A stretch of DNA of 64,000 bases from Desulfobaccales bacterium (GCA_052147455.1 JBKQKO010000001.1:9379-73378), one strand, 5' to 3'; positions 5,674 to 59,963 are shown, counted from the stretch's first letter. Program-made: numbers and translations. Notes: generated from the sequence alone by a model not told the origin.

Positions 5674-5969
5674 CCTGCTCATCTGATCGAGGCCGGCACT
5701 CCTAAGAAAGCTGCGGTTTGCCGCCGGGCCATTTTGAATGATCTTGGTGCTATCCTGCGTCCTGCAAGATGAGTTGGCTGCAAAAAAAGGAGCCTCTTCG
5801 GGATGGAACCCGGGAGGGGAGGCCTAAAAACCATTTATTAACCGGGATGACCCGGACTGCCGTATAATCTCCGATAACCTGCCTGCCTTCTCAGTCGATT
5901 CCTTTCGCCTGAGGAGCTTGCTCTGGTAGAAACTACCGGGCATCTCCCTCGCTAAAGAAGCTGTTATCT

Positions 5970-6073: not shown

Positions 6074-8038
6074 ATGCCACACCGTCGCTGGAAAATAATA
6101 GCCTGCCTCTTCCTGGTCGTGGCCACGTTGGCCGTCTATGCGGAGGTAAAAAACCACCAGTTTGTCAATTACGATGACGTTCTTTTCGTCACTGATAATC
6201 CTACGGTCCAGGGTGGCCTCACCCTGCATGGGCTTATCGGGGCTTTTACCTCTGCCTGTGCCGGCTTATGGCTTCCGTTGACCATGCTCTCCCACATGCT
6301 GGACTGCCAGCTCTTCGGATTGCATCCCGGGGGGCATCACCTCACCAGTTTACTCTTCCACATTGCCAATACCCTGCTGTTATTTCTGTGGCTCCAGCGG
6401 ACCACCGGGGCCTTGGGACCCAGTTTCCTGGTGGCCGCCCTCTTTGGCCTGCACCCCCTGCACGTGGAGTCGGTGGCCTGGGTGGCCGAACGGAAGGATG
6501 TCCTGAGCACCTTTTTCTGGCTGCTCACCATGTGGGCTTACGTCTGGTACGTGGAGGCCCCGGGGTTAGGGCGATACCTCTTGACCCTGGTCTGCTTTAT
6601 TCTTGGGCTGATGGCCAAGCCCATGCTGGTGACCCTGCCTTTGGTCCTCCTGCTGTTGGACTACTGGCCTCTGCATCGCTGGACGCTAAACCGCTCCGCC
6701 GCAGTTAGCCGATCCAAGGGCCGCTCCAGGGTCTCTCCGGACAAAAAAACCCATCCAGGGGTTTCCATCAAGCGCCTGGTTTGGGAAAAAGCCCCCCTGT
6801 TTGCTCTGGCGGCGCTTTTCAGCATTGTGGCTTTCTTTGCCGAAAAAGAAATTGGCGCGGTAGCGTCGCTGCAGGATCTTGCCTTAACGAGCCGCCTCGC
6901 CAATGCTATGGTGGCCTACGTGAGCTATCTGGGTCAGATGTTCTGGCCCACGCACCTGGCCATTCTTTACCCCCTGCCGAGGCATAATCTGCCCATATGG
7001 CAGGCGCTGGCGGCCGGTTTGGCCCTGGCGGTTCTAACCCTTCTGGCTCTTCGGCAGGCCCGGCGGCATCCCTATCTGCCGGTAGGATGGCTCTGGTACC
7101 TGGGCACCCTGTTGCCAGTCATCGGCCTGGTGCAGCTGGGAGGACAGTCCATGGCGGACCGCTACACCTATGTGCCCTGCATCGGGCTGTTTATCATGGC
7201 AGCCTATGGGATGGCTGACCTTGGGGCCAGATGGCGCGTCCCCAGGTTCCTTTTGCCTGTGGGCGCCGGGTTGGTCTTGTCGGCCTTAATGATCTGCACC
7301 TGGATGCAGGTCGGCTATTGGCGCGATTCCATTTCGCTGTATGAACATACCCTGAAGGTGACCGGGAGCAACCCCCTAATCCAGAGCAATCTGGGGTTCG
7401 CCTTGGCGGCGCAGGGCAAGATGGATCAGGCTGTGGACCAGTATACCGAGGCCCTGCGTCTTCAGCCCGATCTTGCCGATACGCATAATGACCTGGGGAT
7501 GGCCCTGGCGGCGCAGGGGAAGATGGAGCAGGCCCGGGACCAGTTTGCCGAGGCCGTGCGTCTTAAGCCCGGCCTGGCCCGGGCCCATAACAACCTGGGG
7601 CTGGCCCTGGCGGCGCAGGGCCAGCTGGATCAGGCTATGGCCGAGTATGCCGAGGCCCTGCGTCTTAAGCCCGAATTTGCCGAGGCCCATTATAACCTGG
7701 GGCTGGCCTTGGCGGCGCAGGGCAAGCTGGATGAGGCTGTGGCCCAGTATACAGAGGCCCTGCGTCTTCAGCCCGATCTTGCCAAGGCCCATAACAGCCT
7801 GGGGCTGGCCCTGGCGAAACAGGGAAAAATAGATGAAGCCATTGCCCGGTTCCAAAAAGCCATCCAAATAAACCCTGATTTCCCAGGGGCTTACTCCAAT
7901 TTAGGATTAGCTTTGGCGATCCAAGGAAATATTGATAAAGCCATTATTATTTATCAAAATGCTCTCAAAGATAACCCTAATAACCCCAGCGCTCAAAAAA
8001 TGTTAAGTATTTTAAAGGCCCAAAGGTCTAATAATTGA
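6074..8038 (+). CDS. TMTC/PMT_2-like multi-pass membrane protein with C-terminal TPR array
   Basis: I placed the start at ATG 6074 because 5984-6073 is repeat DNA. A ~420-aa polytopic N-domain is followed by about 8 canonical 34-aa TPRs (AxxHxNLGLALAAQGKxDxAxxxYxEALRLxP). Confidence 0.75.
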   Translation: MPHRRWKIIACLFLVVATLAVYAEVKNHQFVNYDDVLFVTDNPTVQGGLTLHGLIGAFTSACAGLWLPLTMLSHMLDCQLFGLHPGGHHLTSLLFHIANTLLLFLWLQRTTGALGPSFLVAALFGLHPLHVESVAWVAERKDVLSTFFWLLTMWAYVWYVEAPGLGRYLLTLVCFILGLMAKPMLVTLPLVLLLLDYWPLHRWTLNRSAAVSRSKGRSRVSPDKKTHPGVSIKRLVWEKAPLFALAALFSIVAFFAEKEIGAVASLQDLALTSRLANAMVAYVSYLGQMFWPTHLAILYPLPRHNLPIWQALAAGLALAVLTLLALRQARRHPYLPVGWLWYLGTLLPVIGLVQLGGQSMADRYTYVPCIGLFIMAAYGMADLGARWRVPRFLLPVGAGLVLSALMICTWMQVGYWRDSISLYEHTLKVTGSNPLIQSNLGFALAAQGKMDQAVDQYTEALRLQPDLADTHNDLGMALAAQGKMEQARDQFAEAVRLKPGLARAHNNLGLALAAQGQLDQAMAEYAEALRLKPEFAEAHYNLGLALAAQGKLDEAVAQYTEALRLQPDLAKAHNSLGLALAKQGKIDEAIARFQKAIQINPDFPGAYSNLGLALAIQGNIDKAIIIYQNALKDNPNNPSAQKMLSILKAQRSNN

Positions 8039-13305: not shown

Positions 13306-13342
13306 GGGGCGACAGTGGCACAGGCTTCCAGCCGGTGATTGG
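13306..13342. repeat. REP-like module GCACAGTGGCACAGGNNNNCAGCCNGTG (copy 1 of 3)
   Basis: It shares its core with 48316-48355 and 56708-56743, and contains an internal hairpin CACAGG/CCGGTG. Confidence 0.7.
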
Positions 13343-13518
13343 AAAAGTCGCCCGTGTAGGTGAGGGCACTGCCCACCATCAGGCCTAGTCCCGATAACCT
13401 GGGGCCACAGGCTGATTTAAGAGAAAACGTAGGGGCGACCCGCTGGGTCGCCCTTGCTTTGTATGTTTAAGGCTGGGTCCTCCCCTCAATTTTAGTTTTT
13501 CAGGAAAAGCTCGCTTTT

Positions 13519-37511: not shown

Positions 37512-37544
37512 GGCGGTTTCCGGTTTTCGGTAAACAGGAAAAAA

Positions 37545-37586: not shown

Positions 37587-37589
37587 CTA

Positions 37590-37651
37590 GTGTGATCCTT
37601 CAAAATCGCTAGGACATTTCAAACTACGGTTTTTTAACCCCCCTTTGAAAA
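37590..37651. repeat. ~197-bp MITE-like repeat, copy 1, left part (split by the IS insertion)
   Basis: It aligns with 56810-56873 and ends with TTTGAAAA. Confidence 0.85.
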
Positions 37652-37683
37652 CGGGATATTATACTTTACAAACCCAAAAGGAG

Positions 37684-38529
37684 GTGGTATGCTTTGACCA
37701 ATCAAATGAATTAAATCCTCTGCGATTGGTGAGCCTCTTGGAAATTTTACAAGTTCATGCAGATGTTTTTGTAATGTTAATGAGTACAATGCAAGTCATA
37801 GAGAGTACACTTCTAACTATAGCTAAACTACCAGCCGTTGATACTGATAAATTTATAAAATATAGAGACAATTTAGAAGAACCCTTAGCAGGTTTATTTG
37901 CAGAATGTAGGCAGTTAGAGTTGGATGGCTCTCTGCGAATGATTAATATAATAATTAATAAGTTACCCAATCTGGATGCAAGTGGATTAACAGCAAATAT
38001 AGCAACACTTCGGGAGATGATTTGGGCTGAGTTGGGGGATCGCTTTGTATTACACATACCCCAACAACGCCTTATATGGTTTGATAATGCAAATAGTTTT
38101 GGTAATGAAACTGTTATTGCCTTTAAAAAAGCTATTCCCGATATTACAGAAGCTGGAAATTGTTACGCGTTAGGTTTATATACCGCTTGTATTTTCCATT
38201 TAATGCGTGTTCTTGAACATGGCCTTGGTGCGCTCACAAAAGATGTTGACCTAAAATTCTATCGACAATCTTGGGGCACAATCATAAATAAGATTCGTGA
38301 GAAAATTGATGATGAAATAAAATTACTAAACAAACAACCTAAGGACCCTTCAAGAACTGACAGATTAACATTTCTTTCGCAGGCCGCAAAAGAATTTGTT
38401 TATTTTAAGGATGGTTGGCGTAATTATGCTATGCATGGTTTAGAAGAATATGATGCTCCAAAAGCCTTAAGCGTTCTTAATCATGTAAAAGCATTTATGG
38501 CTCATCTTTCAACTCGGTTGACTGAATAG
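37684..38529 (+). CDS. Passenger ORF: HEPN/Abi_C-like protein (Rx4H motif WRNYAMHG)
   Basis: The C-terminal half has a HEPN-like helix pattern (DITEAGNCYALGLYTACIFHLMRVLEHGL ... FKDGWRNYAMHGLEEYD). The track's TTG start at 37645 lies outside the element, so the start must be internal. GTG 37684 is a guess, and 37726 or 37774 are also possible. Confidence 0.55.
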   Translation: MVCFDQSNELNPLRLVSLLEILQVHADVFVMLMSTMQVIESTLLTIAKLPAVDTDKFIKYRDNLEEPLAGLFAECRQLELDGSLRMINIIINKLPNLDASGLTANIATLREMIWAELGDRFVLHIPQQRLIWFDNANSFGNETVIAFKKAIPDITEAGNCYALGLYTACIFHLMRVLEHGLGALTKDVDLKFYRQSWGTIINKIREKIDDEIKLLNKQPKDPSRTDRLTFLSQAAKEFVYFKDGWRNYAMHGLEEYDAPKALSVLNHVKAFMAHLSTRLTE

Positions 38530-38674
38530 TTTGTCGTCTCTTTTTAATAATTTTGCTCAATGCTTCTTCAAAGGCTTTTTTTGCATCGGGGTTGTCGATT
38601 CGCTTGGCAGCCTCAATAAACCGGGCATATTGCTCTTTGTCATCGGGTTCGGGTTTACTCTTTTTTGCATTCAT
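38495..38674 (-). CDS. Passenger small ORF (59 aa, below the ORF-track cutoff)
   Basis: I translated it by hand as MNAKKSKPEPDDKEQYARFIEAAKRIDNPDAKKAFEEALSKIIKKRRQTIQSTELKDEP. Its ATG overlaps the upstream stop (TAATG). Its 3' end overlaps the convergent HEPN-like ORF by 35 nt. Confidence 0.4.
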   Translation of the reverse strand: MNAKKSKPEPDDKEQYARFIEAAKRIDNPDAKKAFEEALSKIIKKRRQTIQSTELKDEP

Positions 38675-38955
38675 TAGTGCTGTTCTCCCTCTGTTTCAGG
38701 TTTGGCAGGACCCTTATAAGGCACGTATATAGCTGTTTCTGGTGGCGGGACTATCTTTTCGCCATAGTAGGTATAAAGGTTGCCAGTAAGCGTATCAAAG
38801 ACCAGAGTATGTACATAACCACCATATTTATTTTTTACTTGGTAGACTTCTTTCTTTAATTCATACCTCCCCTTAAGGGCTTGTAGACCGAAAATGAGCA
38901 GGAAAATGACCGCCAAAACCAGGATTGCAGGCTTAAACAATTTATCTATATTCAT
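38674..38955 (-). CDS. Passenger small membrane-anchored protein (93 aa)
   Basis: GAGGA lies 9 nt upstream of ATG 38955. An N-terminal TM helix (PAILVLAVIFLLIFGL) is followed by a Tyr/Pro-rich soluble part. Confidence 0.5.
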   Translation of the reverse strand: MNIDKLFKPAILVLAVIFLLIFGLQALKGRYELKKEVYQVKNKYGGYVHTLVFDTLTGNLYTYYGEKIVPPPETAIYVPYKGPAKPETEGEQH

Positions 38956-38982
38956 TTTTACGGTCCTCAAAATAGGATGAAT

Positions 38983-39273
38983 TTATGTCTTTTCACTTCG
39001 GCCCCGAATGGTATTGGGATCAAACCCGCCCGGAAGCCATTCGGGCGCATGTTCAAATGGAAGAATTCCATAAAGGACTCCAACAGCGTCGGCGGCAGAG
39101 ACAAGATAGGAAAGAGGTGCAGGATTTTCTTGAAAGTTCACTACCCAGACATTTTCTGCTAGGCATGAAACATTTGGGTATGTGTGTAATTCTACTTTTG
39201 CTGTCTTTAAAAAACGTTCCCATTTATTTGGTTCAACTCCTGAAATCCGAGCAACGAAAAGGGCGCTGTGCAT
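38983..39273 (-). CDS. Passenger hypothetical protein (96 aa)
   Basis: GGGAG lies 6 nt upstream of ATG 39273. It sits directly downstream of the transposase stop on the same strand. I recognise no family. Confidence 0.45.
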   Translation of the reverse strand: MHSALFVARISGVEPNKWERFLKTAKVELHTYPNVSCLAENVWVVNFQENPAPLSYLVSAADAVGVLYGILPFEHAPEWLPGGFDPNTIRGRSEKT

Positions 39274-39297
39274 AATTACTCCCATTCCTTTGATTTG

Positions 39298-40221
39298 TTA
39301 ATGAGTCGTTTGATAAGTGAGTCTTTTACCAACAACGCCACAAAGGAGTTTTTCGGCCCGCTCGGTATCGTCAATGCCCCTGGCAATACGCTTGCCATAG
39401 CGGAAGTCAAACTCGGCAAGATAGCGGTGAAGATGATGTTTCTTGCAATGCTGGTACACACCCTTCATACCACGTTTGAAGATGGAGAAAAAGCCCTCCA
39501 CGGTGTTGGTGTGAATGGAAGGATCGGCAAGCGAAACATACTCCCCGGTGCTGTGGCAGATGGCCTCATGCTCCGCAAAGTGTTCTTTCAGATATTTGTA
39601 TTGACCTGCATCATCGGTCATAACCCTGGCTTCATGGGCAATATTATCTTTCAAGATCGGGACAATGGTAGCGGCATTGAGGCTGTCAATTACGATGCTC
39701 CGGGCTTCGCCGGAATCCCGATCCACCAGGGAAAGAACCTTGCGCTTGTGGGCGTATCCACGGCGCTTGGGCATATTAGCTTCATTCCATAGAAAGGTTT
39801 CGTCAACTTCCACGATTCCACCATTGGAGCCAAAAGGAGTTAATACACCTTCTCTCATAGCTTCACGGATACGATGACCCATGAACCAGGCGGTTTTGAG
39901 AGTCACCCCAAGGGTTCTATGAAGCTGATTAGCACTAAAGCCCTTCTTGGATGCAGACAACAGGTATATCGCCTGGAGCCAGAGGCGCATAGAAACGTGA
40001 CTATCCTCAAAGATGGTCCCGATCTTGACGGTAAACTGTTTTCGGCAGGCATAGCACTTATAGAGGCCAATGCGGGTAGCCTTGCCGTTCATCTTGCTGA
40101 TACGCTCCCGGCTTCCACAGTGAGGGCAAACTGGACCGTTGGGCCAAATTTTGGATTCAGCGAAGGCATAGGCAGCTTCTTCACTGAGGAATTGGGGAGC
40201 CGAAAAAATTGATTTACTCAT
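39298..40221 (-). CDS. IS1595-family transposase (zinc-ribbon + ISXO2-like DDE domain)
   Basis: AAGGAG lies upstream of ATG 40221. The N-terminal zinc ribbon is CPHCGSRERISKMNG...YKCYACRKQFTVKIGTIFEDSHV, followed by LWLQAIYLLSASKKGFSANQLHRTLGVTLKTAWFMGHRIREAM and then the catalytic region (VEVDETF...). Confidence 0.88.
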   Translation of the reverse strand: MSKSIFSAPQFLSEEAAYAFAESKIWPNGPVCPHCGSRERISKMNGKATRIGLYKCYACRKQFTVKIGTIFEDSHVSMRLWLQAIYLLSASKKGFSANQLHRTLGVTLKTAWFMGHRIREAMREGVLTPFGSNGGIVEVDETFLWNEANMPKRRGYAHKRKVLSLVDRDSGEARSIVIDSLNAATIVPILKDNIAHEARVMTDDAGQYKYLKEHFAEHEAICHSTGEYVSLADPSIHTNTVEGFFSIFKRGMKGVYQHCKKHHLHRYLAEFDFRYGKRIARGIDDTERAEKLLCGVVGKRLTYQTTH

Positions 40222-40285
40222 GGCTATCTCCTTCTTATGAATCAAGATAGCACAGGGTTTGGGGTTTGTCAAGTATAATATTGCG

Positions 40286-40426
40286 TTTGAAAAAGGGGGG
40301 CAGGGGGGATTTAAAATAACCTCCTGAAATCCCCCTAAATCCCCCTTTTCCAAAGGGGGACTTTAATACCCTGGGAACTTAGGTTTTCATTTGATTTAAT
40401 GCCATGGTATTTACGAAGCCTAATAC
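40286..40426. repeat. ~197-bp MITE-like repeat, copy 1, right part
   Basis: It starts with the duplicated TTTGAAAA and aligns with 56866-57006. Confidence 0.85.
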
Positions 40427-40466
40427 CAGTTAATTTTTGACCGAAAATTGAAAACCGGAAACCGCC

Positions 40467-45903: not shown

Positions 45904-47112
45904 ATGTCGTTAGCACCTATTGAAGAAGTCATCAAAGATATACGCCAGGGCAAGATGATCATCCTGGTGGATGACGAAGACCGGGAAAACGAAGGCGACC
46001 TCACCATGGCCGCGGAACTGGTGACCCCGGAGGCCATCAATTTCATGGCCCGTTTCGGACGCGGGCTCATCTGCCTGGCCCTGGAGCCGGACCTGATAGA
46101 GCGCCTGAAATTGCCCCAAATGGTGCGGGACAACCAGTCGGGCTTCAAGACCGCGTTCTGCATCTCGGTGGAAGCCCGGCGAGGGGTGACCACCGGCATC
46201 TCGGCCGCGGACCGGGCCACCACCATCCTCACTGCGGTGGCGGACCACACCCGTCCCGAGGACCTGGTGAGCCCCGGGCACGTTTTTCCCATCCGGGCCC
46301 GGAGGGGCGGGGTCCTGGTGCGCACGGGCCAGACCGAGGGCTCCGTGGACCTGACCCGTCTGTCAGGGCTGAAGGGCGCCGCGGTGATCTGCGAGGTTAT
46401 GAAAGACGACGGCACCATGGCCCGGATGCCGGATCTGGAGAAGTTTGCCGAAGAGCATCGCCTGAAGATCGCCACCATCGCCGCCCTGGTGGAATACCGG
46501 CTGCGGCACGAATCCTTCGTGCACCGCCGGGCCAGCGTCAAGCTGCCCACCTATTTTGGGGAATTCACTGCCATTGCCTATGACAACGACGTGGACGACA
46601 ACCAGCACGTGGCCCTGGTGAAGGGGGAGATTGCTCCGGAGCAGCCGGTGCTGGTGCGGGTCCATTCCGAATGCGTCACCGGTGATGTCTTCCATTCCCT
46701 GCGTTGCGACTGCGGCGACCAGTTGGAAGCCGCCATGCAACTGGTGGAGTGCGAAGGCAACGGGATCATCCTGTACATGCACCAGGAGGGCAGGGGCATC
46801 GGTCTGGTCAACAAGCTGCGGGCCTATGAGCTGCAGGACCAAGGCGCCGATACGGTGGAAGCCAACGAAGCCCTGGGTTTTAAGGCGGACCTGCGGGATT
46901 ACGGCATCGGGGCCCAGATCTTGCGGGACCTGGGAGTCCGCCAGATGCGCCTGATGACTAACAATCCCAAGAAGATCATCGGCCTGGAGGGCTACGGCCT
47001 CAAGATGGTGGAGCGGGTTCCCCTGGAGATTCCTCCCAACCGGATGAATCGCAACTATCTCAAGACCAAGTGTCAGAAGATGGGGCACCTGTTGAAGCTG
47101 GTGGAAAACTAG
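45904..47112 (+). CDS. ribBA: Bifunctional DHBP synthase/GTP cyclohydrolase II
   Basis: I placed the start at ATG 45904. DDEDRENEGDL and HSECVTGDVFHSLRCDCGDQLE are present. Confidence 0.92.
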   Translation: MSLAPIEEVIKDIRQGKMIILVDDEDRENEGDLTMAAELVTPEAINFMARFGRGLICLALEPDLIERLKLPQMVRDNQSGFKTAFCISVEARRGVTTGISAADRATTILTAVADHTRPEDLVSPGHVFPIRARRGGVLVRTGQTEGSVDLTRLSGLKGAAVICEVMKDDGTMARMPDLEKFAEEHRLKIATIAALVEYRLRHESFVHRRASVKLPTYFGEFTAIAYDNDVDDNQHVALVKGEIAPEQPVLVRVHSECVTGDVFHSLRCDCGDQLEAAMQLVECEGNGIILYMHQEGRGIGLVNKLRAYELQDQGADTVEANEALGFKADLRDYGIGAQILRDLGVRQMRLMTNNPKKIIGLEGYGLKMVERVPLEIPPNRMNRNYLKTKCQKMGHLLKLVEN

Positions 47113-47343
47113 TGTCATGTTTCATAATTAGCTGGATATAATATCAGGACTGGAACGCCGGCGTGGGCATGATTAAGTCCCCCTTTTTCAAAGGGGTTTT
47201 TAAAATCAGTCATTTTCAATGGATAATCCATGGCGGAACAGACCACTAGTACCAGCAAGCAGGCGTTAGCTCTCTCCTGACCAGGGGCTTGCGGAACAGA
47301 AAAATACCAAAAACTCAAACTGAGAAACTCAGAAGGGGGAAGG

Positions 47344-48315: not shown

Positions 48316-48355
48316 TAGGGGGGCACAGTGGCACAGGCTTTCAGCCTGTGCTGGG
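48316..48355. repeat. REP-like module (copy 2 of 3)
   Basis: GTAGGGGGGCACAGTGGCACAGGCTTTCAGCCTGTGCTGGG is followed by a GCGCCCTCCGGGGGCGGACACCTGGGTC module. Confidence 0.7.
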
Positions 48356-48531
48356 ATGCGCCCTCCGGGGGCGGACACCTGGGTCTGCCCCTGCTGATCC
48401 CCGCCTTTGCTTTTGGCTGGCAAACTTGCACACCGGGAAATAAAGACTTATTTTGTTAATTTATAAATTGCCATCCGGTACCCAAAGAATCTGAACCGGC
48501 TCCGCCGGCACTGCAAAAGGAGGAATTTGAG

Positions 48532-55754: not shown

Positions 55755-55861
55755 GGCATATGATAAAGATACTGAGGACCAGTTTGATAACTGGGGATGT
55801 AATGTTCACCTCAGTTTTTATTACGGGCCTTAGTCTATAATGGCCAACAGTAGGTTATCTA

Positions 55862-56308
55862 TCACTCACTCTCATGGCTGGAACTCTCGTGGCTGGAACT
55901 CTCGTGGCTTGAACCCCCAGGGCTGGAACTCTCATGGCTTGAACTCTTATAGGTTGAACCCTCAGGGCTGGAACTCTCATGGCTTGAACTTTTATAGGTT
56001 GAACCCTCAGGGCTGGAACTCTTATAGCTTGAACTCTTAGAGATTGAACCCTCAGGGCCTGAACTCTCATGGCTTGAACTCTTATAGGTTGAACCCTCAG
56101 GGCCTGAACTCTTATAGGTTGAACTCTTATAGGTTGAACTCTCAGGGGTTGAACTCACATGGCTTGAACTCTTATAGGTTGAACTCTCATGGCTTGAACT
56201 TCCTTGGACAACGCCTTCCTGGGGTTCAGGCCCCGGTTGGTTTGTTTGGGCATTAACAGTTGTCACACCAATTGTCAACATCAACAATAACAGAAGTATG
56301 GTTTTCAT
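55862..56308 (-). CDS. Secreted Ser/His/Tyr/Glu-rich tandem-repeat protein
   Basis: AAGGAGG lies upstream of ATG 56308. The signal peptide is MKTILLLLLMLTIGVTTVNA. About 22 pentapeptide units follow (SSHES, STYKS, SGPEG) and the protein ends ...SSHESSSHESSSHESE. Confidence 0.65.
   Translation of the reverse strand: MKTILLLLLMLTIGVTTVNAQTNQPGPEPQEGVVQGSSSHESSTYKSSSHVSSTPESSTYKSSTYKSSGPEGSTYKSSSHESSGPEGSISKSSSYKSSSPEGSTYKSSSHESSSPEGSTYKSSSHESSSPGGSSHESSSHESSSHESE
55866..56203. repeat. 15-nt tandem repeat array (higher-order 45-nt unit), coding
   Basis: GGCTTGAACTCTCAT-type units were read directly. Several frames stay open across it. Confidence 0.9.
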
Positions 56309-56684
56309 AAACATAACCTCCTTTAGGATGGTCTATTGGTAATCATTAGATTAAAAAAAGGCAAGAGGAGCCCCGGGAATTAATTTCGTTAATGTGTTTA
56401 AAAAGGGAAATCTGACTCTAATTTTCTAAGAGTATTGGCTTTAAACCGGAGGTGTTCTTCAGAATTACCCCCCAGAGTCAGTGGTGATAGATACCTTGCC
56501 ACAATGAACACCTATCAGAGCGGCGGGAAAAATTGCGGATATGACCTGGATAGTATGTCTGAAGACTAACCGGGCCGGGGAAGATCCCGCCGTGCTCGGT
56601 GCCCTTCAGGGTAACCCCGCAGGCGCCTAATGTTGTGCCCCGGATTTTCCTTTCAAGATGATTTTCCTTTTTTGGTAGGGGCGG

Positions 56685-56781
56685 ATCCAGGTGTCCGCCC
56701 CCAGAGGGCGCACAGTGGCACAGGATCTCAGCCTGTGATTGGGTGCGCCACTGTAGGGGCGGGTTTAAAACCCGCCCCTAC
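56685..56781. repeat. REP cluster (module copy 3 plus GTAGGGGCGGGTTTAAAACCCGCCCCTAC hairpin)
   Basis: GGCGGATCCAGGTGTCCGCC hairpin, GCGCACAGTGGCACAGGATCTCAGCCTGTGATTGGG module and a terminal 11-bp perfect hairpin. Confidence 0.75.
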
Positions 56782-56809
56782 TATTGATAGCACCTGGGAC
56801 GCAACCCAA

Positions 56810-57006
56810 GTGTGATGCTTCATAATTGCCAGGACATTTCAAACTACGGTTTTTTTTAAACCCCCTTTGAAAAAGGGGGGCAGGGGGGATTTTAAATAAG
56901 GTCCTGAAATTCCCCTAAATCCCCCTTTCCCAAAGGGGTACTTTAATACCCTGGGAATTTAGGTTTTCACTTGATTTAATGCCATACTATTTATGAAGCA
57001 CAACAC
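56810..57006. mobile_element. ~197-bp MITE-like repeat, copy 2 (intact; the empty site for the IS1595 insertion)
   Basis: The terminal inverted repeats are GTGTGATGCTTCATAA and (reverse complement) GTGTTGTGCTTCATAA, matching at 14/16. A single TTTGAAAA lies at 56866-56873. Confidence 0.8.
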
Positions 57007-57142
57007 TAGAAGCTATTGCAACCCCCCGGTCTGCCCCAAAAGGTCATTCTGAGTGAAGCGAAGAATCTCGTATTTTTAGTGATTTGAGATCCTTCACTCC
57101 GTTCAGGATGACCGTGAAATCAGGTTTTGCAATAGCTTCTAG
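57006..57142. mobile_element. MITE-like hairpin element (second member of the GTCATTCTGAG...CTCAGGATGAC family)
   Basis: It has perfect 16-bp TIRs (CTAGAAGCTATTGCAA / TTGCAATAGCTTCTAG). The inner palindrome is shared with 10027-10161. Confidence 0.7.
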
Positions 57143-59808: not shown

Positions 59809-59963
59809 CGGCTTTCCCCTCTAATATCGGTCCGAAATTTCCGGTTATCTATGCATAAAACCCGCGCTGCCTATTCCAGGCAACCCGGCCGTCTCTCCAT
59901 CCTCATAGACCCGTGGCTTTCCATCTCCATCGTGCGATGAGTTTGGCTCTTCTGGTACATCTC

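Follow-up and report, generated by a model that had tools for sequence, protein, structure and literature searches.

When an insertion sequence (IS) carries more genes than the transposase that moves it, do the additional genes belong to the element, or are they baggage that it happened to pick up? The question is raised by a 2.6-kb insertion in a 64,000-nucleotide stretch of DNA from a Desulfobaccales bacterium (GCA_052147455.1, JBKQKO010000001.1:9379-73378), which we refer to, at its full length, as the window. A preliminary description of this DNA took the insertion, which sits between a CBS-domain gene and ilvE, for an IS1595-family transposon with four passenger open reading frames (ORFs), lodged in a miniature inverted-repeat transposable element (MITE). 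At a probability of roughly 0.9 we read it as a new transporter IS (tIS) of the IS1595 family. The passengers appear to be of more than one kind: one of them, o59, is a core gene of the clade to which the element belongs, around which other genes are exchanged at fixed slots. The features on which the argument first turns are the following.

37652 to 40285, minus strand (that of the transposase): the complete element, read as an IS1595-family transporter IS; 2,634 bp, delimited by inverted repeats, an 8-bp duplication and an empty-site copy.
40262 to 40285, minus strand: transposase-proximal terminal inverted repeat, CGCAATATTATACTTGACAAACCC read inward.
37652 to 37675, plus strand: distal terminal inverted repeat, CGGGATATTATACTTTACAAACCC.
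37644 to 37651, no strand: target-site duplication TTTGAAAA, left copy.
40286 to 40293, no strand: target-site duplication TTTGAAAA, right copy.
37590 to 37651, plus strand: interrupted MITE copy A, left part, from the left terminal inverted repeat to the loop of hairpin 1, with TA at 37588-37589.
40286 to 40426, plus strand: interrupted MITE copy A, right part, reaching from the loop of hairpin 1 to the right-hand terminal inverted repeat.
56810 to 57006, plus strand: uninterrupted MITE copy B, 197 bp, with a single TTTGAAAA at 56866-56873 and TA at 57007-57008.

The boundaries of the element can be read to the base. Its 24-bp terminal inverted repeats, CGGGATATTATACTTTACAAACCC and the reverse complement of 40262-40285, CGCAATATTATACTTGACAAACCC, are identical at 21 of 24 positions; their 20-nt core occurs at two places only in the window, in inverted orientation, where shuffled sequences (n = 100) lead one to expect none, and no further copy is found inside the element or elsewhere in the window even when three mismatches are allowed. 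Directly outside both ends stands TTTGAAAA, and because the bases adjoining its two copies differ, the duplication is exactly 8 bp long. The flanks align (MAFFT) to the two halves of 56810-57006, with the lone TTTGAAAA of that copy falling exactly at the junction; by blastn, copies A and B are 88% identical over 68 nt on the left (E 5e-19) and 92% over 134 nt on the right (E 1e-51). The empty-site copy thus brackets the full 2,634 bp, from which it follows that the insertion arrived in a single piece, the extra genes moving along with the transposase as they do in a transporter IS. The G+C content is 33–51% in the interior (33–43% in the cargo, about 50% in the transposase gene) vs 58–66% in the flanks. 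On all of these points, the 21/24 repeats, the 8-bp duplication, the uninterrupted copy and the A+T-rich interior in a G+C-rich host, the preliminary description was right. A scan against Rfam gave no match within the element.

Within these boundaries the four ORFs besides the transposase are present as the preliminary description had them, and the transposase that closes the element, 307 aa long as it had also said, is intact.

39298 to 40221, minus strand: transposase, 307 aa, with an N-terminal zinc ribbon and an IS1595-type DDE domain (Pfam, NCBIfam).
38983 to 39285, minus strand: ORF96/100, a member of an uncharacterised small-protein family; the likely start is the ATG at 39273, preceded by GGAG, which gives 96 aa.
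38674 to 38970, minus strand: ORF93/98, a small domain preceded by a hydrophobic anchor at the N terminus (KPAILVLAVIFLLIFGLQAL); gene callers start it at 38955, for 93 aa.
38495 to 38674, minus strand: o59, 59 aa, a basic tail and a two-helix hairpin, with the motif Q..RF.E.A+E.G.DES..AFE+AF.KI.
37684 to 38529, plus strand: ORF-A, read as a HEPN-domain protein of divergent sequence; 281 aa at its longest, counted in frame from GTG 37684.

The family assignment rests on the transposase, the ends and the duplication together. The protein matches PF12762 (DDE_Tnp_IS1595, ISXO2-like) at 1.4e-31 and 110 bits (cut-off 27), NCBIfam NF033547 (IS1595 family transposase) at 1.1e-52 and 179 bits (cut-off 75), and, over residues 12-62, PF12760 (Zn_ribbon_IS1595) at 6.4e-15, with the ribbon CPHCGS...CYACRKQF, so that the family call with its zinc ribbon and ISXO2-like region stands. 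The catalytic residues, read by eye, are D..D..E(x7)K, and the ratio of nonsynonymous to synonymous substitution rates (dN/dS) is 0.09-0.12 against the related loci L007 and L011. The IS1595 family is characterized by an 8-bp duplication, a zinc finger in all subgroups except IS1016, and a DDE domain (PMC8101967); the 8-bp duplication and the terminal inverted repeats are found here and in 55 relatives, and every family trait that could be tested is present. As transporter ISs have been defined, namely as IS1595 elements with passenger genes (Siguier, Gagnevin and Chandler, 2009, Res Microbiol 160:232, as cited in PMC3129680), the likeness is close: a transposase with a zinc ribbon and the DDE_Tnp_IS1595 domain, terminal inverted repeats, the 8-bp duplication, and extra genes within the repeats. 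Transposase relatives borne on plasmids are at most 56% identical and are named merely 'IS1595 family transposase'. The exact transposase recurs in a Desulfobaccales metagenome-assembled genome (MAG), GCA_052325785.1, and in several metagenome assemblies, always in the same interval between the CBS-domain gene and ilvE; the element occupies the identical site at loci L001, L002, L004 and L115, in five assemblies in all.

The transposase gene accounts for 924 of the 2,634 bp (35%), a share that the preliminary description had thought unusual. A transposase scan that took one genome per species gave 80 loci, from Desulfobaccales and other deltaproteobacterial MAGs (69–92% identity), many Alphaproteobacteria (55–65%) and Leptospira interrogans (58%). 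By the inverted-repeat consensus, 55 elements could be delimited at both ends, each with a perfect 8-bp duplication; gene content was compared in 53 complete elements. Their ends follow GGCGATATTATACTTGACAAACCC with little variation, so that the ends proved consistent among copies, and their lengths run from 1,830 to 6,746 bp; not one of the 55 is transposase-only. The one-third share is therefore normal for the clade, and the unusual point dissolves. A sister element, L007, occupies another site, where it has made a TTTGAAAA duplication of its own; it is 90% identical to the window's element in the transposase and 91% in ORF-A, and its gene order is the same except that ORF93 has decayed. The search for further copies that the preliminary description had proposed was thus productive for a sister elsewhere and gave the exact element at one locus.

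The same gene order runs through the clade: an inverted repeat, the transposase, zero to several variable genes, o59, and a convergent distal gene. The distal gene encodes 230–330 aa, starts 30–70 nt inward of the distal inverted repeat and reaches up to or into the end of o59; in the window, o59 overlaps ORF-A by 35 bp at its 3' end, and its start overlaps the ORF93 stop. The invariants of this large clade, which is represented in Desulfobacterota, many Alphaproteobacteria and Leptospira, are the inverted repeats, the transposase and a protein of about 55 aa predicted to form a helical hairpin (o59), with two variable slots, one between the transposase and o59, the other past o59 and read convergently from the distal inverted repeat. 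At another locus, L111 (726-2802), two IS1595 transposase genes stand head to head beside one o59 and an IS256-type (Transposase_mut) gene, an arrangement that resembles an insertion nest.

How, then, should the additional genes be regarded? The preliminary description took all four for passengers acquired by chance and unrelated to the biology of the element, and three considerations speak for that reading: none of the four matches a family related to transposition; a tIS with unrelated passenger genes is a published concept (PMC3129680, citing Siguier, 2009); and sister elements do differ in ORF-A and ORF93. It is o59 that argues most strongly against it. An iterative search of all ORFs found a homologue in 52 of the 53 complete elements, across phyla, invariably encoded on the same strand as the transposase and lying downstream of it, in a fixed position while its surroundings are exchanged; its dN/dS of 0.14-0.22 points to purifying selection. 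A profile search of 5.8 billion proteins returned 2,541 clusters, all annotated 'hypothetical' and with a Pfam domain in none, and two homologues picked blind, solely for their long contigs, both lie downstream of IS1595 transposases. In more distant IS1595 elements, with transposases 52% and 37% identical, o59 was not found. We conclude, from this pattern of occurrence, that o59 is a clade-specific core gene and not cargo. It would serve the element itself, in the regulation or assembly of transposition, and not the host. A part as a specific antitoxin is disfavored because o59 occurs equally with unrelated distal genes across the clade.

ORF96 likewise fits poorly with chance acquisition. 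Within the 53 elements it is confined to L001, L007 and L011; an exhaustive search nevertheless returned at least 123 representative clusters of relatives (50 at E ≤ 1e-10), mostly full-length at 90–100 aa and 35–55% identity and sharing the clear motif MHSALFVA...RLAENVWL.N...YGILPF..P.WLP, with no Pfam domain. One homologue, P0214 (49% identical), lies directly after another IS1595 transposase, so that a recurrent IS1595-linked family takes the place of this supposed passenger. Among the three close copies its evolution is peculiar: dN/dS is 0.7-0.95, substitutions show no codon periodicity (14/16/16 by codon position), both strands of three diverged copies have an open frame of about 96–100 codons, and dS lies below that of the transposase. 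That the region is non-coding, or coding on the other strand, was considered and is rejected for the transposase-strand frame in view of the 123 protein relatives. The transposase-strand frame thus belongs to a real protein family, with what looks like an additional constraint at the nucleotide level. ORF93 is another matter. It occurs only in the window's element, plus a decayed remnant in L007 (37% identity), matches no family in the searches made, and by this distribution looks to be lineage-specific cargo.

Of the four passengers first proposed, then, ORF-A and ORF93 do behave as exchangeable cargo, and the label fails for o59 and, in the sense just given, for ORF96. The stipulation that the extra genes of a transporter IS be unrelated to transposition seems plausible for ORF-A and ORF93 and doubtful for o59. 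That all four are chance passengers we consider, on balance, rather unlikely.

The exchange of cargo is best seen where the backbones are nearly the same. The elements L009 (transposase 92% identical) and L010/L011 (88–89%) hold a DUF3800 gene in the slot where the window holds ORF-A, and the DNA similarity of the window's element to them is limited to two segments, the inverted repeat with the transposase and o59. Near-identical backbones with different distal genes, alike only in these two segments, therefore point to cargo exchange at fixed slots. One might have supposed the DUF3800 genes to be remote relatives of ORF-A, a possibility rejected by an hhalign probability of 0.4%. Over the 53 elements the distal slot holds ORF-A in 16 and DUF3800 in at least 12, and elsewhere a gene of an unknown family (C7), a PIN protein, a trypsin-like protein and further ones. 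In the proximal slot, relatives carry gene pairs, among whose products are a PIN-like protein, a DNA methylase-HNH fusion (N6_N4_Mtase-HNH) and an AbiL-like ATPase with its partner. Particular cases are a two-gene AbiL-like defense system at L086 (8425-10190; AbiLi at 2e-49 with PDC-M38B/DUF3226), the methylase-HNH fusion carried by L030, and a DUF3800 cargo gene at L074 that matches the PADLOC candidate PDC-M04A at 4e-35. By inspection, the cargo of the clade is rich in toxin- and defense-type genes. In the window's copy, the proximal slot holds the 96-aa IS1595-linked protein and a 93-aa protein with a predicted membrane anchor, and the distal slot what is probably a divergent HEPN protein.

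The assignment of ORF-A to the HEPN superfamily, which we regard as probable, draws on motif, predicted structure and relatives. HEPN proteins are recognized by Rx4-6H, in which the Arg is followed by a polar residue, together with an upstream acidic residue that is conserved (Anantharaman et al., 2013, PMC3710099). The ORF-A family, 71 homologues that are all 'hypothetical', has this signature: in alignments of 38 and 58 sequences R175, E178, K242, R246 and H251 are invariant, and the Asn following R246 is nearly so, giving W-R-N-x3-H (in ORF-A, R246-N-Y-A-M-H251, encoded at 38419-38436). The AlphaFold2 model is all-helical, with a mean predicted local distance difference test score (pLDDT) of 88; in it R246 ends a long helix (222-246), and E178 falls in predicted helix 166-187, the second of a C-terminal bundle, as expected of the HEPN fold. 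The best fold match in the PDB is the HEPN protein AF_0298 (2hsb), at a probability of 0.99, with the HEPN entries 1ufb and 4nqf lower in the list; weak matches to PF05168 (HEPN) occur in 23 of 58 relatives, among which no other family recurs. A profile search against PDB sequences gave chance matches only. Selection on ORF-A is purifying (dN/dS 0.19, dS 0.23, L001 vs L007). It is found, convergent and abutting o59, in the 16 elements already mentioned, and also in a distinct IS1595 lineage, L089, whose transposase is 37% identical; its occurrence there and in contexts free of any IS therefore marks it as an independent module captured more than once.

In its R-N-x3-H at the end of helix 3, its acidic residue in helix 2, its all-helical bundle, its location on a mobile element and the defense-type genes of its sister elements, ORF-A resembles the HEPN toxins AbiD/F, AbiU2, AbiV, RnlA/LsoA and HepT (PMC3710099). 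Unlike them, it has no significant match to a curated family, about 120 aa at its N terminus form an additional helical domain, and it comes without a recognizable MNT or antitoxin partner. More tentatively, then, ORF-A may be an RNase toxin of the abortive-infection (Abi) or addiction type. It would be a metal-independent HEPN-type RNase acting as a single-gene abortive-infection or addiction module, and it would help the element to persist, as would the defense-type cargo of the sisters (the AbiL-like pair, DUF3800/PDC-M04A, PIN and methylase-HNH).

The way in which ORF-A begins is anomalous, and bears on whether it is expressed at all.

37677 to 37698, plus strand: anomalous start of ORF-A, AAAGGAGG-TGGT-ATG-CTT-TGA-C, recognized from the sequence and the start regions of relatives.

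In relatives, a Shine-Dalgarno sequence directly follows the distal inverted repeat, with an ATG 5–9 nt on. The window has the pair in the same place (37680-37691, ATG at 37689), but the frame so opened stops after two codons, and ORF-A runs on in the +1 frame (…GAC CAA TCA…). The sequence CTT-TGA-C is what we take to be the slippery/stop heptamer of the prfB (release factor 2, RF2) programmed +1 frameshift, and ATG-CTT-TGA-C at 37689-37698 is followed, as in an RF2-type site, by the downstream ORF in the +1 frame. On the other hand, the Shine-Dalgarno stimulator lies 7 nt upstream of CTT, not 3 nt, and doubles as the initiation signal. Gene callers start ORF-A at 37729 or 37738; these internal GTG/TTG codons have no Shine-Dalgarno sequence, and GTG 37684 has none at usable spacing. 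The identical arrangement is seen in L007 and L116, but the distal inverted repeat and about 100 nt inside it are near-identical DNA between L116 (1-300) and L007, and the three instances (L001, L007 and L116) are for that reason not independent. The near-identity itself suggests either a recombination boundary or shared recombined end, or a constrained subterminal site. A genuine RF2-type +1 frameshift at this start we consider possible on the sequence but unlikely.

A simpler account would be that ORF-A is a decaying pseudogene, a one-nucleotide frameshift having cut it off from its Shine-Dalgarno sequence and ATG with loss of expression. The two-codon frame and the poor alternative starts are just what such an account predicts. 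Against it, the 281-codon frame is open, the L001–L007 comparison shows purifying selection over a dS of 0.23, every invariant residue of the family is intact, and the start arrangement is kept in three elements, one of which (L116) has an ORF-A body only 39% identical. We therefore hold decay to be improbable, and continue to regard ORF-A as a conserved, probable HEPN protein.

On the minus strand, the transposase, ORF96, ORF93 and o59 are separated by gaps of at most 12 nt or have overlapping stop and start codons, and probably form one operon. Its promoter would lie within the transposase-proximal inverted repeat, where an inward -35-like TTGACA is followed 17 nt further on by a -10-like TATCTT (promoter-like from 40272 to 40244); nearly all relatives have, on the transposase side, a -10-like TAnnnT at about 17 nt. 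On the distal side there are two inward promoter-like sequences, both by consensus match only: TTTACA-17-TATGCT in the inverted repeat (37665-37693), and TTAACC-17-TATTAT, a flank/repeat hybrid (37634-37662).

A number of observations weigh against the reading of this element as an active transporter IS with functional cargo. The exact element is found as one copy at one occupied site in the assemblies searched, and the check for an empty CBS–ilvE site proposed in the preliminary description could be made on four related contigs with the identical CBS protein, all four of which (4/4) carry the element; with one locus only and no empty allele among them, recent activity is unsupported. The closest subgroup is presumably ISNwi1 (by the DDEK motif, the inverted-repeat end sequence and the passenger genes), a provisional placement. 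A role for o59 in transposition is suggested by its conservation, and its structure matches nothing known: the predicted model (AlphaFold2) has a pLDDT of 74, and in the PDB a profile search gave chance matches only and a fold search nothing. ORF-A itself falls below all Pfam, PADLOC and NCBIfam thresholds, and PHROGs, Pfam, PADLOC and NCBIfam give no significant match for any of the four non-transposase proteins; the fold match to 2hsb is a modest one, with E 0.18 and a TM of 0.59 relative to the target; the homologues P0037 and P0044 have no IS nearby; and no partner antitoxin for ORF-A was recognized in the element. Expression of ORF-A is uncertain because its Shine-Dalgarno sequence and ATG are out of frame, and a conserved inward promoter in the distal inverted repeat was considered and rejected, a good -10 being present in 8 of 53 relatives only. 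The roles of all the non-transposase genes are accordingly put forward as predictions.

The most ambitious combination of these threads would make the clade a miniature shuttle for one- and two-gene defense or toxin modules built around o59, which would mark the boundary between the two exchange slots, with the window's sub-lineage producing its HEPN toxin only through an RF2-type +1 frameshift at CUU-UGA-C, codons two and three. We regard the combination as distinctly improbable. If it were true, the frameshift would tie production of the toxin to the termination capacity of the cell, and so act as a sensor of translational stress or of phage.

We turn now to the target. The label of MITE given to the 197-bp repeat is well founded. 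Its terminal arms (56809-56838 and 56978-57007) are 73% complementary over 30 nt; it is short and non-coding; and its interior folds into a pair of hairpins, each with a C5-6/G5-6 stem around an A+T-rich loop. Ten contigs were recovered when metagenomes were scanned with 18 nt of the left arm, and the defined ends, GTGTGATGCTTCATAA… and …TTATGAAGCACAACAC, imperfect inverted repeats of each other, are common to at least six loci with unrelated flanks (besides copies A and B, L096/L103, L104, L099/L100 and L095/L102), most copies having TA on both sides. The repeat is thus a genuine multi-copy MITE. A known class of TA-flanked MITEs derives from IS630/Tc1-mariner-type elements, and this one resembles them in its length, terminal inverted repeats, lack of coding capacity, many copies and mostly TA flanks; it differs in its imperfect terminal repeats and in an interior of C/G-stem hairpins that recalls repetitive extragenic palindromic (REP) elements or terminators. 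No autonomous parent turned up, though no search aimed at a parent IS was made. The window holds one further, degenerate copy.

47112 to 47205, plus strand: short degenerate relative of the MITE, with a left-end-like sequence and one CCCCC-TTTTTCAAA-GGGG hairpin.

This MITE has been entered more than once. At L104 (5863-8136), a different IS1595 element, with a transposase 52% identical, inverted repeats CGCAATTATTTACTTGACATACCA / GGGGATTATATACTTGACAGACCA and no o59 detected, lies in the hairpin-1 loop with the same TTTGAAAA duplication. In L099 (1777-3574) and L100, a 5'-deleted close relative occupies the hairpin-1 loop, the left half of the MITE abutting transposase residue 224, and keeps o59 and the distal inverted repeat. 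A relative at L116 lies in the loop of a similar C-rich hairpin. Six relatives from Desulfobaccales and other deltaproteobacterial MAGs lie inside C5-6/G5-6 hairpin loops of related repeats. Their duplications (TTTAGAAA, TTTCTAAA, TTTCTTAA and TTAGAAAA) vary by locus and are the same on both sides of each, which means that the insertions were independent.

Since one repeat family flanks several of the relatives, the MITE flanks might instead be taken for part of the mobile unit, a single ancient insertion having spread as a composite of MITE and IS, so that the apparent preference is a matter of inheritance; the MITE's own transposase could in principle mobilize a nested IS. Against this stand duplications that differ among loci (TTTGAAAA and the four just listed) and match within each, insertions in hairpin 1 or hairpin 2 and in either orientation, elements with transposases 52–92% identical and different cargo, and uninterrupted MITE copies (copy B of the window, L096 and L103), all of which leaves common descent of the composite very unlikely. 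The idea that a minimal IS of about 1.1 kb and neighboring host genes were closed off by a stray solo inverted repeat, the whole being immobile, is suggested by the difference in G+C between cargo (33–43%) and transposase (about 50%) and is scarcely credible, given that no internal inverted repeat exists even at three mismatches, that the duplication and the empty-site copy bracket the entire 2,634 bp, that 55 relatives share the layout with perfect duplications at their outer ends and none transposase-only, and that the sister L007 has the same gene order at a different site with its own duplication.

Over 53 sites, the duplications contain on average 6.4 A+T in 8, vs 3.1 in random 8-mers of the same loci, and a stem of at least 5 bp adjoins the duplication at 13% of sites, vs 1.5% of controls. 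Relatives in Alphaproteobacteria occupy other A+T-rich sites, often the T-tracts of terminators. Most simply, the elements would favor A+T-rich 8-mers resembling TTTNNAAA, and in a G+C-rich genome these occur mainly in hairpin loops and terminator tails. The transposase would recognize the 24-bp inverted repeats and make an 8-bp staggered cut in an A+T-rich target; in the window, the 2.6-kb unit has entered a TA-flanked MITE between the CBS-domain gene and ilvE, at the TTTGAAAA loop of its first C6/G6 hairpin. Among ISs that target palindromic repeats are IS1397 and ISKpn1, which insert in the loops of bacterial interspersed mosaic elements (BIME) and REPs, and IS110-family elements, which insert in REPs. 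The present case is like the IS1397/ISKpn1 type in its repeated insertion in an extragenic hairpin loop, a 'safe' intergenic site, and unlike it in that the preference here seems to be for A+T-rich TTTNNAAA-type 8-mers that happen to sit in loops.

Other repeats lie about the two MITE copies. A GGTTTNC-type heptamer repeat (GCGGTTTCCGGTTTTCGGT...) flanks copy A on both sides in inverted orientation (37513-37542 and 40436-40465) and is also found between genes at 5960, 9894, 9932, 11946 and 12116. A REP-like palindromic repeat (…GGCACAGTGGCACAGGCTTTCAGCCTGTG…) stands at 13306-13349, 48317-48392 and 56677-56752, the last directly upstream of copy B; L096/L103 have a related hairpin beside the MITE. 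Between this repeat and copy B lies a GTAGGGGCGGGTTTAAAACCCGCCCCTAC hairpin (56755-56783), and just downstream of copy B, at 57043-57070, is GTCATTCTGAGTGAAGCGAAGAATCTC, a motif common in the intergenic regions of many bacteria. Just upstream of the copy B region, at 55823-56245, a 15-nt unit with a five-codon period recurs in tandem, in no fewer than 19 copies. Elsewhere in the window we note four or five tandem 102-nt units of 74–80% identity at 7381-7890, probably a 34-residue coding repeat, and, at 59876-59957 on the minus strand, a c-di-GMP-I riboswitch aptamer (Rfam RF01051, 46.5 bits, gathering score 35).

Set beside what has been published, the element itself is of a known kind and a very clean example of it; the novelty is moderate and lies in the leads that its clade provides, namely o59, the defense-type slots, the targeting of hairpin loops and the start of the HEPN gene. 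The IS1595 family has been described as having a single transposase gene (PMC8101967), whereas the clade of the window's element always has an extra conserved gene of about 55 aa and two exchangeable slots. The nearest published parallel is that of the Tn7-like transposons, which carry defense systems (Benler et al., 2021, PMC8649781) and likewise combine a conserved core with highly variable, defense-rich cargo. The window's element is far smaller (2–7 kb in its clade), has a single DDE transposase, carries cargo that runs from one gene to a few, and is of another family. A search of the literature collection consulted found no paper on IS1595 elements as carriers of defense genes.

With both junctions, the duplication and an unoccupied target all within 64 kb, the locus is well suited as a reference for annotating this IS family, whose members are poorly annotated in MAGs; the element's non-transposase genes are all 'hypothetical' in public records. 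In o59 there is a very large family of proteins of about 55 aa that travels with one clade of IS1595 elements and may be an unrecognized accessory factor of transposition. Recurrent landing in the hairpin loops of a MITE keeps the insertions harmless to the host genome, and the exchange of toxin- and defense-type genes between near-identical backbones provides a lead: small ISs, besides large transposons and islands, may exchange defense-type genes at fixed slots.

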